This document shows, piece by piece, positions 10,793-54,369 of a DNA stretch of 64,000 bases (position 1 is its first letter; every line of letters begins with the position of its first letter). The notes below the pieces were generated by a model. That model searched no databases, was not told the DNA's origin, and saw only the letters and a program-made list of their open reading frames with translations. The stretch lies in the sequence record PX104378.1. One strand, given 5' to 3'. Both the position numbers and the translations under genes were made by a program. The stretch is from a phage.

Positions 10793-10820
10793 ATTATACA
10801 TTAGCCAATCATGTTGTCAA
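10793..10820 (-). promoter_or_regulatory. PeSL-type early promoter (TTGACA-N16-TATAAT)
   Basis: Consensus hexamers on minus strand; conserved leader GCTCACATCGAAAACAACGAGAGGA before ATG 10763. Confidence 0.7.
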
Positions 10821-10835
10821 CACCCCAAAACGAAA

Positions 10836-10858
10836 AAGCCGACCCTTTCGGATCGGCT
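10836..10858 (-). terminator. intrinsic terminator after nrdD (part of PeSL)
   Basis: Hairpin AGCCGATCCGAAAGGGTCGGCT followed by T-run on minus strand. Confidence 0.6.
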
Positions 10859-21630: not shown

Positions 21631-21658
21631 ATTATAGCACTATGATTTTCATTGTCAA
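21631..21658 (-). promoter_or_regulatory. PeSL-type early promoter (TTGACA-N16-TATAAT)
   Basis: Consensus hexamers; leader and GGAGAATCAAAG RBS before ATG 21601. Confidence 0.7.
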
Positions 21659-21675
21659 CAACTAAAAACAAAAAA

Positions 21676-21702: not shown

Positions 21703-22488
21703 TTACACGCGAGCACCGTAGATCGTGCCTACTTTATCCCAGCGTGGAGCATTACCAGTAACAGCCTTACCAGCCGCACCACCAGAGTGAACAGTTCCTC
21801 CAGTACCACCTTGAATATATGAAGATTTGCCAGCAGATCCCAAATCTCCACCATTTCCTCCATAGTGAACCCCAGAAACAGTGCCTTTACCTGGGGCAGA
21901 AATTGTACCAGCAGATGCTGCCGCTGCGCCGCCTCCTGCCTTACCAGCCGCACCAAATGGACGGCCTCCGCCGCCGCCAAATATCATATCCATTTGAGGG
22001 AAAGGATGGTATCTAGCACCAGCACCGCCACCACCACCACCACCAATAATACCATTATTGTTTATTCTTAAACGAGTTCCAATTCCGTTATTTATTGCAT
22101 TTCCTCCTGCTCCGCCAGCAGAGTTACTTCCGCCATTTCCTCCCCGACCTAATACATGAACACCAGAGTTAATAATGAGTGTTACATATTCGTTTGTTAG
22201 TGAGCTAGGGAAATCAAGACAAGGAACGCCAGTAGAATGGGAAACAATATTACCGGTGATAGTAATTACTACCGGAGTAGATCCTTGTGCTTTCATCCAG
22301 TTAATAAGAGTGTCTTTATTGTAAGAGTTACTAGCGCCAATGCTATAATGAATCTCTTTAGAACGTCCGACCATCGCTGACATATACGCCGGACGACCTA
22401 AGCGTACAGCTTGCATTGCGGCGCTCATCCACCGTTGACCAGTCTCAGCAACAGCCGATGATCCGACCCAACCTGCTTTAATTGCCAT
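21703..22488 (-). CDS. gp38-like glycine-rich receptor-binding adhesin homolog (T2/S16 type)
   Basis: N-terminus MAIKAGWVGSSAVAETGQRWMSAAMQAVRLG resembles the gp38 attachment domain; C-terminal half has glycine-rich motifs GRGGNGGSNS, GGGGGGGAG, GGGGGRPFGAAG, GGNGG separated by short variable segments; ends ..WDKVGTIYGARV. Confidence 0.7.
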   Translation of the reverse strand: MAIKAGWVGSSAVAETGQRWMSAAMQAVRLGRPAYMSAMVGRSKEIHYSIGASNSYNKDTLINWMKAQGSTPVVITITGNIVSHSTGVPCLDFPSSLTNEYVTLIINSGVHVLGRGGNGGSNSAGGAGGNAINNGIGTRLRINNNGIIGGGGGGGAGARYHPFPQMDMIFGGGGGRPFGAAGKAGGGAAAASAGTISAPGKGTVSGVHYGGNGGDLGSAGKSSYIQGGTGGTVHSGGAAGKAVTGNAPRWDKVGTIYGARV

Positions 22489-23819: not shown

Positions 23820-24018
23820 TCTTCACGGTCTCCATAATTGTTTTGTAAGCCAGTTTAAGATGATCACCGAAAAACTTTGCAGTGTTACCCTTCGGATCGC
23901 GAAGCATGGTTTCTACGATCTCATCGGCAGTAACAATTTCTCCTTTCTTTGCTGCATGTCCTACCATATACTTCAAAGTTTCTTCGGAAGCAAGTGCTGC
24001 GGCTACTGGATTAATCAT
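23809..24018 (-). CDS. hypothetical protein (69 aa)
   Basis: ATG after PeSL leader GGAGAATCAAA; promoter 24048-24076. Confidence 0.5.
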   Translation of the reverse strand: MINPVAAALASEETLKYMVGHAAKKGEIVTADEIVETMLRDPKGNTAKFFGDHLKLAYKTIMETVKNAK

Positions 24019-24047
24019 TTTGATTCTCCTTTGTTGTCGATGTGTGC

Positions 24048-24076
24048 ATTATGCTATACCCTATTCCGGTTGTCAA
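24048..24076 (-). promoter_or_regulatory. PeSL-type early promoter (TTGACA-N17-CATAAT)
   Basis: Terminator hairpin immediately upstream, leader and RBS downstream. Confidence 0.6.
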
Positions 24077-24093
24077 CACCTAAAAACGAAAAA

Positions 24094-24113
24094 AGCCACC
24101 CTTTCGGATGGCT
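24094..24113 (-). terminator. intrinsic terminator after the 715-aa gene
   Basis: Hairpin AGCCATCCGAAAGGGTGGCT followed by T6 on minus strand. Confidence 0.65.
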
Positions 24114-24125
24114 TTTGATTATATT

Positions 24126-26273
24126 TTATTCACGTCCATTTGTATAGTAGTGTTTGAATCGCCCATAGCCAGTTTCAATAGACATATCCTTCTGGCGGAC
24201 AATCGCCCAATAACCATTACACGAATCTTGAAGATACAAATCCTTACCTTTTAGGAACTCATTAAAGATAGTGATTTGCCAGTCATAGTAGACAGAATCT
24301 TCAAGTTTATCCATCCAACCATGCGGATCTTCCATCAATTCGACAAGCTCATCAATTACCCAATACGGACACGGACTAAATCGGCCTTTGCTAAACTCGT
24401 TAAACATAGTAACAATTTTAACTTCCGGTCTAGGTTCATCCGGTCGCACAGGACGTTTATTAACTACAACCTGAACATATTTTGTATACCCGACAATCTC
24501 GCCAGGATCTAGTTCATCGTTGCTGTTTTTATCAGCAAATGCAACAAATCGATAAACACCAGCATCCTCTAGCGTAACGTTTGCTTTACGGTAAATCGGA
24601 CTTCTTGAGTCCTCCATGTCCATTTTAACACCGTTTTTACTAAACTCATAAGTCGGAACATATGAGGCTGGCGGTTTTAGCATGGTTGCTTCTAGCGTTA
24701 GGGTATCACCTTCCGTAACCTGTACCGGATGAGGACCGTCAAACTCCATATTCGGCACTACTTCAACATGATAGGTCGAACGACCAGCAATATCAAAATC
24801 AGTATGTGCACTAAATGGATCTTTACTAGGACTATCACGATATTCATGCGCCCAGATGCCGTTATGGTCTCGGTCCGCAGAGTCGGTGATCTTATATTCC
24901 TTAGTACCTAGCGGAAGTTCCGTTACTTTAACGTCGTTTTTGGTGATAACCAAAGTTCGCGTTTGTTCGGGATCATCGCTAGCTGGCGGTTCAGGATCTA
25001 TGATCTTGAGAACAATCGGTTCACCCACTTCAATATTACGATAATCATACTCTTTATCATAAATATCAAGCATACGACGATCATAAAATAATGGGCGACC
25101 GTTAGGAATCACCTGTTCACCCGCTGGATTGGCAGGAGCAACCAACAATTGAAGCGCAACGCTGTTATCATATTGCAATCCAGATAGCGTTATCCGGTCA
25201 TAACCCTCATCGCCATATTTTTTACTTTGTAGTTTCTTACCGCCAAGCATCCACGTAAAGTAAACATTGTTAGTAAGCATACCATAATGACGATTCCATG
25301 AGCTATCGGCTTGCATCACTGGCATATCAAGGTTTACTGTAGACCCAGAAGGATAACGAAAATCAATAGCACTAAAATCACGGCTAAAAAATTCGTTTTC
25401 TTTTACGTTAACCGTGAATTGATGACGTTGCCCGTCAATATATTCAGTTCCAGCACCAGGTCCATTAACAACCTTATACGCACGAACAAAAGCAACATAA
25501 ACTCCGGCATCTGACGGTTGAGCATGTTTAGTTACATACAAAGTCTTATCTTTAGACTCATAAACCAAACTACCATCATTGCGCTCTAGTCGATATCGGA
25601 CAATAGTATATTCCGCCTGATTTGGTGCATCATCCTCTACGGTAAAATAAGCAGGTGCATATTTTTGTACGTTGAATACTTCCTTATTTTCAGTGATGTT
25701 TGCATAGAAAGGATATACAAATTTAACCTCACCATGTTCATCACTCAATTCCATTTTATATGTACCGGAAAATTCAGGCCAAGCGAATTTTGCAATTTTA
25801 AATTCACGATGGTCTAACCCCAGATCACCATCAACGGAATCAACCAAACCATCATTATAATAAAGGTCAACCGAAATATTAGGCTGGATATGACTACGAA
25901 AAACAATCTTTGCCTTGATTTCATCACCAATATTAAAAGACGTCGGCGGGTATACATGTTCCACATATGGATTATCAAAAAGTTCAAAGGTGAAGTTTTC
26001 CGTGCCGATATCTACGGATTCGCCAGAAAGATTTTCATCATCTTGAGCAAAACCACGAACATTAACAGACCAACCTGTTTTATCTTCCTCTTTAACAGAT
26101 TTTAGCGGAAAGGATGGACCATCTGTCATTGTGATCAACTTATCATTCTTTTTCCACAAATAACCTTTTCGTCTTTTCTCTGGGTCTTCCGACTCAGCAA
26201 CAATAGAACATTCAAAAGTATGAGGAAGCCAAATTTGTGAGTTAATTGTAGTGTTTTTAATTTCTGCTGGCAT
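24126..26273 (-). CDS. large hypothetical protein (~715 aa) with Ig-like repeat signatures
   Basis: Recurrent D-x-G-x-Y motifs (SDAGVYVAFVRAYKV, EDAGVYRFVAFADK) typical of Ig-like beta-sandwich domains; start at ATG 26273 after AGGGGGA RBS; no signal peptide. Confidence 0.6.
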   Translation of the reverse strand: MPAEIKNTTINSQIWLPHTFECSIVAESEDPEKRRKGYLWKKNDKLITMTDGPSFPLKSVKEEDKTGWSVNVRGFAQDDENLSGESVDIGTENFTFELFDNPYVEHVYPPTSFNIGDEIKAKIVFRSHIQPNISVDLYYNDGLVDSVDGDLGLDHREFKIAKFAWPEFSGTYKMELSDEHGEVKFVYPFYANITENKEVFNVQKYAPAYFTVEDDAPNQAEYTIVRYRLERNDGSLVYESKDKTLYVTKHAQPSDAGVYVAFVRAYKVVNGPGAGTEYIDGQRHQFTVNVKENEFFSRDFSAIDFRYPSGSTVNLDMPVMQADSSWNRHYGMLTNNVYFTWMLGGKKLQSKKYGDEGYDRITLSGLQYDNSVALQLLVAPANPAGEQVIPNGRPLFYDRRMLDIYDKEYDYRNIEVGEPIVLKIIDPEPPASDDPEQTRTLVITKNDVKVTELPLGTKEYKITDSADRDHNGIWAHEYRDSPSKDPFSAHTDFDIAGRSTYHVEVVPNMEFDGPHPVQVTEGDTLTLEATMLKPPASYVPTYEFSKNGVKMDMEDSRSPIYRKANVTLEDAGVYRFVAFADKNSNDELDPGEIVGYTKYVQVVVNKRPVRPDEPRPEVKIVTMFNEFSKGRFSPCPYWVIDELVELMEDPHGWMDKLEDSVYYDWQITIFNEFLKGKDLYLQDSCNGYWAIVRQKDMSIETGYGRFKHYYTNGRE

Positions 26274-26293
26274 GTATCCCCCTGTGACTGACA

Positions 26294-26692
26294 TTAAGCC
26301 AGTCGAGTGAGTTTATAAATTGTTTTAAAGCATAGAACTTTTATATCGTCTAAAACGCTCTGTAACGAGCTATCAACATCATTATAAATCTCACTAGCCA
26401 TTTGCGTTAACTCTTGCAAATAGGCAATTTCGCTAATCTCCTTGCGGACGACCAACGTTGGCTGATAACGACCAGTGATCCCAATATTGGTTTCAGTGAA
26501 ATTATCAACCAATTCTTGCATTTCAAGATAGAACTCTTCGAGAGCCTTATGTTTTGCATAAGATCCCGGACCAGTTACCCCAAAATGCGCAGAATGCATA
26601 TAAGTAACACTCATCAGACATTCACCGATAAAGCGGTCAACTTTATTAGCTTTCCCCTCTTCGGACGTCTTTCGAAAATCACTGAATTTCAT
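26294..26692 (-). CDS. hypothetical protein (132 aa)
   Basis: Start at ATG 26692 after GGAGAATCGAGAAC RBS. Confidence 0.4.
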   Translation of the reverse strand: MKFSDFRKTSEEGKANKVDRFIGECLMSVTYMHSAHFGVTGPGSYAKHKALEEFYLEMQELVDNFTETNIGITGRYQPTLVVRKEISEIAYLQELTQMASEIYNDVDSSLQSVLDDIKVLCFKTIYKLTRLA

Positions 26693-38928: not shown

Positions 38929-38965
38929 TTTGATTCTCCTAAGTGTGTTTCGTTTCGATATGTGC

Positions 38966-38994
38966 ATTATGCTATAGTCGTTTATGGTTGTCAA
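38966..38994 (-). promoter_or_regulatory. PeSL-type early promoter (TTGACA-N17-CATAAT)
   Basis: Leader ACATATCGAAACGAAACACAC and GGAGAATCAAA RBS before ATG 38928. Confidence 0.65.
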
Positions 38995-39011
38995 CACCTA
39001 AAAACAAAAAA

Positions 39012-43552: not shown

Positions 43553-43560
43553 TATAAATA
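43553..43560 (+). promoter_or_regulatory. T4-type late promoter TATAAATA for gene 53
   Basis: Exact TATAAATA 32 nt upstream of gp53 ATG at the start of the plus-strand late block. Confidence 0.7.
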
Positions 43561-54361: not shown

Positions 54362-54369
54362 TATAAATA
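54362..54369 (+). promoter_or_regulatory. T4-type late promoter TATAAATA for gene 9
   Basis: Exact TATAAATA 28 nt upstream of gp9 ATG. Confidence 0.7.

Follow-up and report, generated by a model that had tools for sequence, protein, structure and literature searches.

A probable accessory Hoc paralogue with six Ig-like domains, encoded downstream of rI in an RB49-like Krischvirus phage

The closest described relatives of the protein analysed here are the Hoc (highly immunogenic outer capsid) head decoration proteins of phages T4 and RB49, which are virion components bound at gp23* hexamer centres on expanded heads and in which the capsid anchor is conserved most and the tip least. [quoted passage not shown] 2023). 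Residues Y293, H295, R300, W309 and W310 have been described as conserved Hoc capsid contacts, and the loop E355-S-R-N-G359 of T4 Hoc is highly conserved, with R357 salt-bridged to D313. The pI values of published Hocs range from 4.23 to 5.16. Larger and multiple Hoc-type proteins have also been catalogued: Serratia phage Muldoon has a Hoc of 1174 aa with 10 Ig domains plus a second Hoc of 314 aa, Enterobacter phage PG7 has two Hoc-like genes, and in PG7 and CC31p007 the Hoc anchor is joined to a GDSL lipase (Fokine et al. 2023).

The window, i.e. the whole 64,000-nucleotide stretch of DNA that was analysed (sequence record PX104378.1), originates from a Krischvirus (RB49-like) phage and contains an uninterrupted minus-strand ORF at 24126..26294, which is 722 aa long when counted from the first ATG. 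A first-pass annotation, made from the sequence alone, had assigned this whole interval to a protein of about 715 aa; the ORF is real and the length of 715 aa stands, whereas the CDS begins at 26273 and position 26294 marks an upstream in-frame ATG. The second ATG (26273) is the start in all homologues and in the annotated orthologues of Brandy (QZI93402) and G2248 (QBO62239), and it is preceded by the Shine-Dalgarno sequence GGGGGA, while the ATG at 26294, which overlaps the stop codon of rI.-1 (TAATG), is probably unused. In every public record the 2.1-kb gene is labelled "hypothetical". It now gains a probable function: the gene is likely to encode an accessory, highly diverged Hoc paralogue with six Ig domains on a Hoc-type anchor, which would form an accessory virion fibre. 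The features of the locus are, in order of transcription:

27015..27022, minus strand: predicted T4-type late promoter box TATAAATA upstream of rI, a perfect match located 33 nt before the rI ATG
26679..26981, minus strand: rI (antiholin), first gene of the unit, identified by Pfam Antiholin on orthologues
26294..26692, minus strand: rI.-1 (DUF5856), second gene of the unit, overlapping the rI stop and ending 20 nt before the hoc-like start
24126..26273, minus strand: CDS of the 715-aa Hoc-type protein, stop codon included
24091..24116, minus strand: intrinsic terminator AAAAGCCATCC-GAAA-GGGTGGCTTTT with a T-run and an 11-bp stem, closing the transcription unit
24048..24076, minus strand: sigma-70-type early promoter TTGACA-N17-CATAAT (11/12 match), serving the downstream genes

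The 715-aa protein is acidic, with a pI of 4.87 for the whole sequence and 4.80 for the C-terminal domain (CTD), and has neither a signal peptide nor a membrane segment. The missing signal peptide had been pointed out before, and on inspection of the sequence the N-terminus indeed showed no hydrophobic signal-like stretch. The domains are, from the N-terminus:

25974..26273, minus strand: Ig-like domain 1 (aa 1-100), distal tip and most variable part; AF2 pLDDT ~90
25689..25973, minus strand: Ig-like domain 2 (aa 101-195); AF2 pLDDT ~85-94, multi-Ig matches in Foldseek
25398..25688, minus strand: Ig-like domain 3 (aa 196-292), with SDAGVY; AF2, Foldseek
25059..25397, minus strand: Ig-like domain 4 (aa 293-405), with the degenerate motif YDNSVA; AF2, lower model confidence
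24756..25058, minus strand: Ig-like domain 5 (aa 406-506); AF2, Foldseek
24456..24755, minus strand: Ig-like domain 6 (aa 507-606), with EDAGVY; Pfam Ig_3, PHROG Hoc-like and tail Ig profiles
24129..24413, minus strand: Hoc-type capsid-binding domain by homology (aa 621-715), where conservation is highest

The Ig-like, multi-domain character noted in the first-pass annotation was borne out by the domain prediction proposed there, which returned Ig folds by both AF2 and Foldseek. The AF2 model of the protein (mean pLDDT 75) consisted of about six tandem beta-sandwich domains, and its best Foldseek matches in the PDB were the six-Ig ectodomains of contactin, neurofascin and sidekick (E~1e-18); on the basis of these two results, the multi-Ig observation stands. 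The Foldseek matches in BFVD included an 846-aa protein, which is probably the 846-aa Hoc-like paralogue. In the Pfam search of the protein, only the sixth domain was recovered, as a sub-threshold Ig_3 match (E=1.4e-4, residues 521-585 of the 722-aa ORF), and nothing was found for the other five Ig domains or the CTD. The repeated D-x-G-x-Y motifs reported earlier are present as SDAGVY (aa 254-259) and EDAGVY (aa 569-574, both in 715-aa numbering), and these two are the only exact copies, the other four domains having degenerate versions. Ig-like domain 1, with a mean identity of 63% and 18% invariant columns among the homologues, was weakly similar to 9ncf_S and, at E=6e-5, to one of the Ig domains in the 846-aa Hoc-like paralogue.

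The final ~95 residues had been overlooked in the first-pass annotation. They contain PYWVIDEL, a GW tryptophan, and the loop QDSCNGYW, the counterpart of Q354-ESRNG-Y360 in T4 Hoc. Matches to Hoc were marginal in a single-sequence phmmer search against the PDB (T4 Hoc, E=0.02) and unconvincing in pairwise BLASTP against RB49 Hoc (E=0.016), and were thus too weak, so that profile methods were needed. Against PHROG 1149 ("Hoc-like head decoration"), the CTD alone gave an E-value of 1.2e-6, and Ig-like domain 6 together with the CTD an E-value of 1.5e-9, the match covering the end of the profile; in the HMM alignment, the CTD was placed on residues 302-361 of T4 Hoc (5vf3_Z). When the family CTD was aligned by hhalign to 12 diverse Hoc CTDs, the probability was 96.3% (P=1.7e-9, 69 ungapped columns), whereas the reversed and 30 shuffled controls reached a probability of at most 1.9% (P>=0.026). 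The Hoc CTD set was gathered by tblastn, since a word-indexed search with the RB49 Hoc CTD gave only two proteins.

In the first AF2 model, built with a family-only alignment, the CTD had a pLDDT of 27-63; its helices and C-terminal strands followed one another as in the later model, with the two N-terminal strands unresolved. Because of this low confidence, the CTD was re-modelled alone with a mixed alignment, which resulted in the topology b-b-H-H-H-b-b(-b) with a core pLDDT of 80-86. The top Foldseek match of this model in the PDB was 8t1x_X, the T4 Hoc C-domain on the gp23* capsomer (probability 0.99, TM 0.53), which was the only credible match, the next ones having probabilities <0.15; its E-value was weak (0.043), and as Hocs were included in the alignment, the fold match is not independent of the sequence evidence. 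On the basis of the profile alignments and the modelled fold, the final ~95 residues are a diverged homologue of the Hoc capsid-binding domain, which would place the 715-aa protein in the class of virion decoration proteins.

With a mean identity of 87% and 60% invariant columns, the CTD retains T4 Hoc positions W310, D313, Q354, S356, N358, G359 and Y360, and it has the substitutions W309 to Tyr and E355 to Asp. In 715-aa numbering, W638 is the equivalent of W310. The loop reads D-S-C-N-G here and D-S-K-N-G in P0016, so that S, N, G and D313 are kept and the exchange of E for D is conservative, while the position of R357 is occupied by Cys throughout the 16 close homologues and by Lys in P0016. 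Two of the five conserved Hoc contacts are kept or conservatively replaced (W310, and W309 as Tyr), and no equivalent of Y293/H295 (the "VHP" motif) or of R300 was found in the aligned CTD (KIVTMFNEFSKGR). With the VHP motif, R300 and R357 missing, binding to the canonical site is not assured. The CTD moreover ends in an extra strand, IETGYGRFKHY, which most Hocs do not have.

These differences could be read to mean that the protein descends from Hoc with an anchor re-targeted away from the centre of the gp23* hexamer, towards a subset of capsomers, the gp24 vertices, the neck or tail, or another Hoc-type fibre, in coexistence with canonical Hoc. The replacement of conserved capsid contacts in a domain that is otherwise extremely conserved suggests a specific, constrained partner. 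Canonical hoc persists in the phages that carry the gene, as does a second Hoc-like gene whose anchor is orthodox, so that competition would be selected against; the rare C-terminal strand points the same way. Nevertheless, re-targeting is possible but unlikely, as the core of the contact loop (Q354, S356, N358, G359, Y360) is retained together with W310 and D313, and no data indicate an alternative partner. In addition, RB49 Hoc has been published to bind T4 capsids at only ~22% full-length identity, which implies that the site tolerates divergence.

The gene is located directly downstream of rI and rI.-1, and the gene layout upheld its earlier placement between the gp38-like gene (21703..22488, minus strand) and tk (27050..27646, minus strand). 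A late promoter further upstream had been proposed as something to look for, and a perfect TATAAATA box was found before rI. This box is conserved in RB49, G2248, Brandy, L015 and L018, being retained in relatives down to ~50% protein identity, and it falls in the predicted late promoter Pl:48756 of RB49 (Nolan et al. 2006). A hairpin spans 26991-27030 and might mask the Shine-Dalgarno sequence of rI. Across the window the TATAAATA box is not enriched (4 found, 6.8 expected). Just upstream of the gene itself, the search for a dedicated late promoter returned degenerate boxes only, TATAAACT (26317..26310) and TATAAAAG (26345..26338). Between the late box (27022..27015) and position 24116, one weak intragenic match was the only terminator-like site. 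Judged from these sequence signals, the unit of rI, rI.-1 and the hoc-like gene probably starts late at the TATAAATA box.

The terminator that had been assigned to the gene was confirmed as an 11-bp stem with a T-run at 24116..24091, and terminators of different sequence occupy the equivalent place in the divergent relatives L015 and L018 and in G2248. Together with the promoter at 24076..24048, it forms a cassette of the PeSL type, defined by a stem-loop terminator directly ahead of an AT-rich segment and then a consensus sigma-70 promoter, the whole recurring within the genome (Arbiol et al. 2010, PMC2839356); partial copies are located in the window at 38955-39011, 10813-10853 and 21652-21675. 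A tail-fibre or adhesin role was rejected, as gp38 lies downstream at a distance of ~1.6 kb, separated by five small ORFs and at least one terminator/early-promoter cassette, and the CTD is by homology a capsid anchor.

The first-pass annotation had considered an Ig-like protein on the early strand unexpected. This claim did not hold, given the Hoc-type anchor and the late box upstream of rI; as this box heads the unit and the canonical hoc of RB49 is also on the minus strand, the strand is here no guide to timing. Nor is the protein a known conserved T4-type early enzyme, an identity that had also been considered. It might instead be a non-virion early Ig protein that acts inside the infected cell or at its surface, e.g. 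to exclude superinfecting phages or to modify the host surface, with its Hoc-like C-terminus as a relic or devoted to another interaction. Early read-through from tk is possible because the tk-rI gap has no terminator to separate the upstream early genes; the hyperplastic region is rich in early promoters and PeSL cassettes, and CC31p007 and PG7 have Hoc-anchor domains encoded in early regions. Those fusions were, however, read as capsid-displayed by Fokine et al., and a conserved, predicted late promoter heads the unit here. Conservation is strongest in the Hoc-type anchor, and without a signal peptide or membrane segment the Ig array would have no route to the cell surface; an early cellular function is therefore very unlikely. 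A defence or superinfection-exclusion role was likewise set aside, the protein having no signal or membrane segment and its anchor homology accounting for it.

Orthologues of the accessory Hoc candidate were identified in SSG23, SFHK24 and Brandy (~98.6%) and in G2248 (78%), and in total 16 intact full-length homologues shared 58-97% identity. An exhaustive profile search of 1.84 billion representatives returned two clusters and one remnant and no further distant full-length relatives, the remaining matches being generic Ig-repeat. About 90% of the sequenced krischviruses with a match have remnants only, including RB49 and Phi1, which have lost the gene through independent microhomology deletions. 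The protein is thus dispensable, being deleted from most sequenced krischviruses. The same losses might suggest a decaying or functionless ORF, open by chance in a few genomes. Among the intact homologues, however, dN/dS was 0.08-0.14, indicating purifying selection, with synonymous divergence at or near saturation, and the domain-wise pattern of conservation, synteny, Shine-Dalgarno sequence and terminator are all kept. The reading as a decaying ORF is therefore extremely improbable, and the selection analysis already effectively refutes it. In the literature on SSG23, Brandy/Whisky/Cognac, G2248 and Phi1/RB49, there was no virion proteomics and no mention of the gene, and neither proteomics nor cryo-EM was found for phages carrying it.

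From the architecture, anchor and locus together we infer capsid binding, the binding site, late timing and a ligand or function for the 715-aa protein along the following lines. The tandem array of six Ig-like domains would make up a fibre about twice the length of T4 Hoc, as estimated from the domain count, which the ~95-aa C-terminal alpha/beta domain would tether to mature, expanded heads, with the middle of gp23* hexamers as the most likely site. gp23 itself is not encoded in the window. The distal, variable Ig domains would face outward and may weakly bind glycans or other surface molecules; alternatively, the fibre could act as an acidic coat tuning the dispersion of virions. The unit would be transcribed from the TATAAATA late promoter through rI, rI.-1 and the hoc-like gene to the strong terminator, so that the protein would be available at head maturation.

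Brandy has three Hoc-type genes, i.e. canonical hoc, the 846-aa Hoc-like gene and the 715-aa gene. A mosaic coat of up to three Hoc-type fibres (the 3-Ig Hoc, the 846-aa and the 6-Ig protein), in which the re-tooled anchor uses distinct sites or shares sites with canonical Hoc by regulated partition and the long fibres are host- or niche-adaptive, is a speculative extension that we consider distinctly unlikely. If true, candidate roles would be the unexplained capacity of Brandy49-type phages for O-antigen penetration and a broad host range, or mucosal retention, and this would also account for the retention of the genes in isolates from O-antigen-bearing or clinical hosts and for their loss in laboratory-type lineages.

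What is new here is very probably a divergent and so far unannotated Hoc-type member, the Hoc class itself being already known. Proteins with Hoc anchors accordingly probably extend beyond BLAST-based catalogues, of which the 650 homologues compiled by Fokine et al. 2023 are an example. The E. coli and Shigella phages SSG23, SFHK24, Brandy, G2248 and JK32 are of therapeutic type and may display three Ig fibres per head, with a bearing on models of phage adherence to mucus and glycans and on immunogenicity and pharmacokinetics in phage therapy. For Hoc-based display technology, a second orthogonal anchor would be useful. The presence of the intact gene and of two independent deletion types in near-isogenic phages constitutes a natural experiment on accessory Hoc fibres.

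Compared with known systems, the protein resembles T5 pb10 (PDB 5lxk), whose Ig-like domain is displayed from the centre of capsid hexamers, as those of the 715-aa protein would be, with a weak Ig-level match (E~0.7), but the anchor domain of pb10 is not homologous and the likeness is that of the generic Ig fold only. With T4 and RB49 Hoc it shares the string of N-terminal Ig-like domains on a C-terminal alpha/beta capsid-binding domain (PHROG 1149; 8t1x/5vf3), an acidic pI, a conserved anchor with variable Ig domains, the lack of a signal peptide, and dispensability. It differs in having six Ig domains instead of three (the N-terminal Ig structure of RB49 Hoc is presumably PDB 3SHS), in an anchor too diverged to be linked by BLAST (pairwise E=0.016), and in the loop DSCNG for ESRNG with no VHP motif and no R300. 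The gene is placed downstream of tk-rI-rI.-1, whereas hoc is usually located between gene 24 and inh/uvsW, as are the canonical hoc genes of RB49 and Brandy, a position that is typical but not defining; and it co-occurs with canonical hoc in the same genomes. The Hoc-like gene of 846 aa (L006:7698-10238), which adjoins hoc in Brandy and probably in G2248, and which is equalled in length by BFVD A0A482GB96, is a second long multi-Ig accessory Hoc of the same phages. It is likewise deleted in RB49, where the remnant RB49p168.2 corresponds to the last 39 aa (82% identity), but it has an orthodox anchor (VHPIPWRRTSF...ESRNGY; PHROG 1149, E=2.8e-52) and the canonical hoc locus. Precedents exist in Muldoon, PG7 and CC31p007: a phage can encode more than a single Hoc-anchor protein, Ig domains can be numerous, and the gene can sit apart from the late structural cluster, as CC31p007 does beside gene 39. 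Those Hocs came from BLAST searches with the C-domain of T4 Hoc, which would miss the 715-aa family, and the anchor is N-terminal in the lipase fusions of PG7 and CC31p007, whereas in the 715-aa protein it is C-terminal and accompanied by Ig domains only.

On the minus strand, an open reading frame extends between 26294 and 24126 and would encode 722 amino acids if counted from its first ATG (26294). This ATG lacks a ribosome-binding site and overlaps, as TAATG, with the stop of the preceding gene. A second ATG at 26273, 21 bases further in, is preceded by the Shine-Dalgarno sequence GGGGGA, and a start at this position ("MP...") is common to every annotated orthologue and to each of the 15 homologues from the database; thus, the true product is 715 amino acids long (CDS 24126..26273). 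The phage is an RB49-like Krischvirus (Straboviridae), and the closest proteins are those of Shigella phages SSG23 and SFHK24 and Enterobacteria phage Brandy (ca. 98.6% amino-acid identity), followed by G2248 (78%). In every record the gene is annotated as "hypothetical protein".

Pfam returned a single sub-threshold Ig_3 match, near the C-terminus. The AlphaFold2 model built from 16 family members (mean pLDDT 75; >85 across the first ca. 290 residues) showed about six beta-sandwich domains in series and then a small alpha/beta domain, and Foldseek against the PDB retrieved six-Ig ectodomains (contactin-1/2, neurofascin, sidekick; E-value ca. 1e-18, ca. 680 columns). These results bear out the multi-Ig protein proposed in the first-pass annotation. 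Both motifs quoted there are present, SDAGVY as the F-strand motif of domain 3 and EDAGVY as that of domain 6, and the motif is degenerate in the remaining Ig-like domains.

What had been overlooked was the C-terminus, identified as a Hoc capsid anchor. The PHROG 1149 profile ("Hoc-like head decoration") matched the last Ig domain plus C-terminus up to the profile end (E = 1.5e-9), and the last 110 residues alone, without the Ig domain, with E = 1.2e-6. In the family profile, residues 629-688 aligned with T4 Hoc 302-361 (PDB 5vf3_Z), sharing the positions C..WV.DE...W...YY...Q.S.NGY. Against 12 diverse Hoc C-domains gathered from the phage collection (T6, RB49, Brandy Hoc, the Brandy 846-aa protein, pKp20, Acj9, Aeromonas phage 31, Morttis, Margaery, CC31p007, Kp05F and P0045), hhalign gave a probability of 96.3% (P = 1.7e-9, 69 ungapped columns); the reversed query gave P = 0.14 and 30 column-shuffled queries P ≥ 0.026 with probabilities ≤ 1.9%. 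A second model, of the C-terminal domain alone and using the gene's family aligned with 30 Hoc-type proteins, raised the core pLDDT to 80-86 and had the topology b-b-H-H-H-b-b(-b); the Hoc C-domain is a four-stranded sheet under a three-helix bundle, without other PDB relatives (Fokine et al. 2023). Among 350,542 PDB chains the sole credible Foldseek match to this model was 8t1x_X, "T4 Hoc C-terminal domain bound to the gp23* capsomer" (prob 0.99, TM 0.53, 26% identity), the remaining matches each having a probability <0.15; this structural test is not independent of the sequence evidence, because Hocs were included in the alignment behind the model.

Published Hocs are acidic (pI about 4-5). 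Their E355-S-R-N-G359 loop, which sits at the centre of the capsomer, is highly conserved, and Y293, H295, R300, W309, W310, D313 and R357 are conserved residues (Fokine et al. 2023). The 715-aa protein has a pI of 4.87 (published Hocs, 4.23-5.16) and retains W310, D313, Q354, S356, N358, G359 and Y360, with conservative changes at W309 (Y) and E355 (D). However, all 16 close homologues have Cys at the R357 position, where P0016, the most distant family member, has Lys, and neither the VHP motif (Y293/H295) nor R300 has an equivalent. Pairwise BLASTP against RB49 Hoc gave only E = 0.016, which explains why the gene was never annotated as Hoc. By domain homology and architecture, the protein is a Hoc-family member with an unusually diverged anchor. 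Its C-domain would attach the protein to expanded heads, most likely in the centre of gp23* hexamers, and the six acidic Ig domains would extend outward as a fibre whose tip evolves fast, serving, as proposed for Hoc, in weak adherence to glycans or mucus or in control of virion dispersion. Chief among the alternatives, though in our view unlikely, is that the changed anchor targets another site, which would allow the fibre to sit alongside canonical Hoc without competing with it.

The first-pass annotation had considered a multi-Ig protein on the early strand unexpected. That argument fails, since the canonical hoc of RB49 is itself on the minus strand, and a conserved, perfect late-promoter box TATAAATA (27022..27015, minus strand, 33 nt upstream of the rI start) heads a unit of rI, rI.-1 and the hoc-like gene, tightly packed with overlaps or 20-nt gaps. 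Searching downstream from this box, no convincing terminator was found before 24116..24091, right behind the stop codon of the hoc-like gene. The RB49 counterpart of the box falls within Pl:48756, one of only 17 predicted RB49 late promoters (Nolan et al. 2006). The order tk, rI (antiholin), rI.-1 (DUF5856), hoc-like gene, terminator and new sigma-70 promoter persists in metagenomic relatives with protein identities of only 60% and about 50%, in which the TATAAATA box is kept and the terminator sequences differ. We infer that late expression is plausible and conserved. Early read-through from tk into the rI unit may occur; a non-virion early role of the protein is poorly supported and, given the Hoc anchor and the late box, quite improbable. 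The observation of a multi-Ig protein is confirmed, and its interpretation is partly supported: the Ig-like architecture holds, the reading as an unexpected early protein does not.

In the window, three boxes, the rI box among them, precede a Shine-Dalgarno sequence and ATG by 25-35 nt. The two others lie just where the GC skew flips sign (ca. 44 kb) and probably mark the start of late-gene blocks:
43553-43560, plus strand, perfect TATAAATA box 25-30 nt upstream of Shine-Dalgarno and ATG
54362-54369, plus strand, perfect TATAAATA box 25-30 nt upstream of Shine-Dalgarno and ATG
Downstream of a fourth box (37214, minus strand), no Shine-Dalgarno/ATG pair occurs at the usual spacing.

The rI box is held in the loop of a strong hairpin (26991-27030, minus strand; arms CCCCAGAUU...AAUCUGGGG, z = -5.1), the 3′ arm of which includes part of the rI Shine-Dalgarno. 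In the divergent relatives the arms differ yet still pair (CCCCCAA/TTGGGGG in L015, G-U pairs in L018). The layout resembles that of T4 genes e and soc, where the Shine-Dalgarno is masked in early read-through transcripts, and late transcripts begin inside the loop and are translated.

Behind the hoc-like gene, the terminator stem-loop and consensus sigma-70 promoter (24010-24125, minus strand) fit a PeSL cassette, a type of mobile regulatory element known from the hyperplastic regions of RB49 and Phi1. Brandy has a 76%-identical copy behind its gp38-like gene (L001:10598-10682), and partial copies occur in the window:
38955-39011, partial terminator/promoter cassette
10813-10853, partial terminator/promoter cassette
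21652-21675, partial terminator/promoter cassette

A profile search of 1.84 billion representative proteins found only two full-length clusters and one remnant, which confines the family to Krischvirus-like phages. The full gene was present in 6 of the 59 phage records with any match; the others hold a 36-codon N-terminal scrap in unannotated DNA, except Phi1, which has the last 68 codons, its annotated ORF084.1 being a piece of the old anchor domain. In Phi1 (L003:4985-5025) two GGAAGAYCC repeats were joined (window 26190-26182 and 24333-24325), and in RB49 (L002:5055-5175) the junctions are LITM/IVTM and GRF/GRF codon repeats; the losses were distinct microhomology-mediated deletions, so the gene is ancestral and was lost at least twice. 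Stop codons now lie within both remnants. Overall dN/dS is 0.08-0.14. Conservation peaks in the anchor (87% mean identity, 60% invariant columns), which also has the lowest dN, and is weakest in distal Ig1 (63% and 18%). That the gene itself is decaying is poorly supported and very hard to credit. The metagenomic P0017 (118 aa; E = 4e-31 to the family profile) joins the last ca. 62 residues of the anchor to unrelated N-terminal sequence and is another independent decay product of the hoc-like gene.

Brandy keeps the 715-aa gene, canonical hoc (408 aa) and, between hoc and inh, an adjoining 846-aa Hoc-like gene with an orthodox anchor (L006:7698-10238; PHROG 1149 E = 2.8e-52); some krischviruses thus encode three Hoc-type proteins. 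The 65-aa RB49p168.2 (L005:2195-2392) matches the last 39 residues of the 846-aa protein (82% identity), indicating that RB49 also deleted this gene and has shed both accessory Hoc-type genes. A tblastn search located the Hoc anchor at 1578 places in 1375 phage records, so it is fairly common for a phage to have a second copy. In several T4-like phages the anchor is N-terminal in other proteins or a stand-alone ORF of ca. 90 aa:
L009:3025-4560, CC31p007, Hoc anchor joined to a GDSL lipase; the gene is next to gene 39 in an early region
L008:1213-1716, Margaery, Hoc anchor in another setting
L010:1177-1452, Kp05F, Hoc anchor in another setting

Intriguingly, Brandy49, which carries the accessory Hoc genes, gets through O-antigen layers by an unexplained mechanism. 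The hoc-like gene is of use to annotators and offers a natural presence/absence system. It adds a new, unannotated and strongly diverged member to the known Hoc decoration class and does not represent a new kind of system. Pairs of Hoc-like genes in one phage and Hocs with up to 10 Ig domains are known (Fokine et al. 2023), and a Hoc anchor fused to a lipase has already been described (CC31p007).
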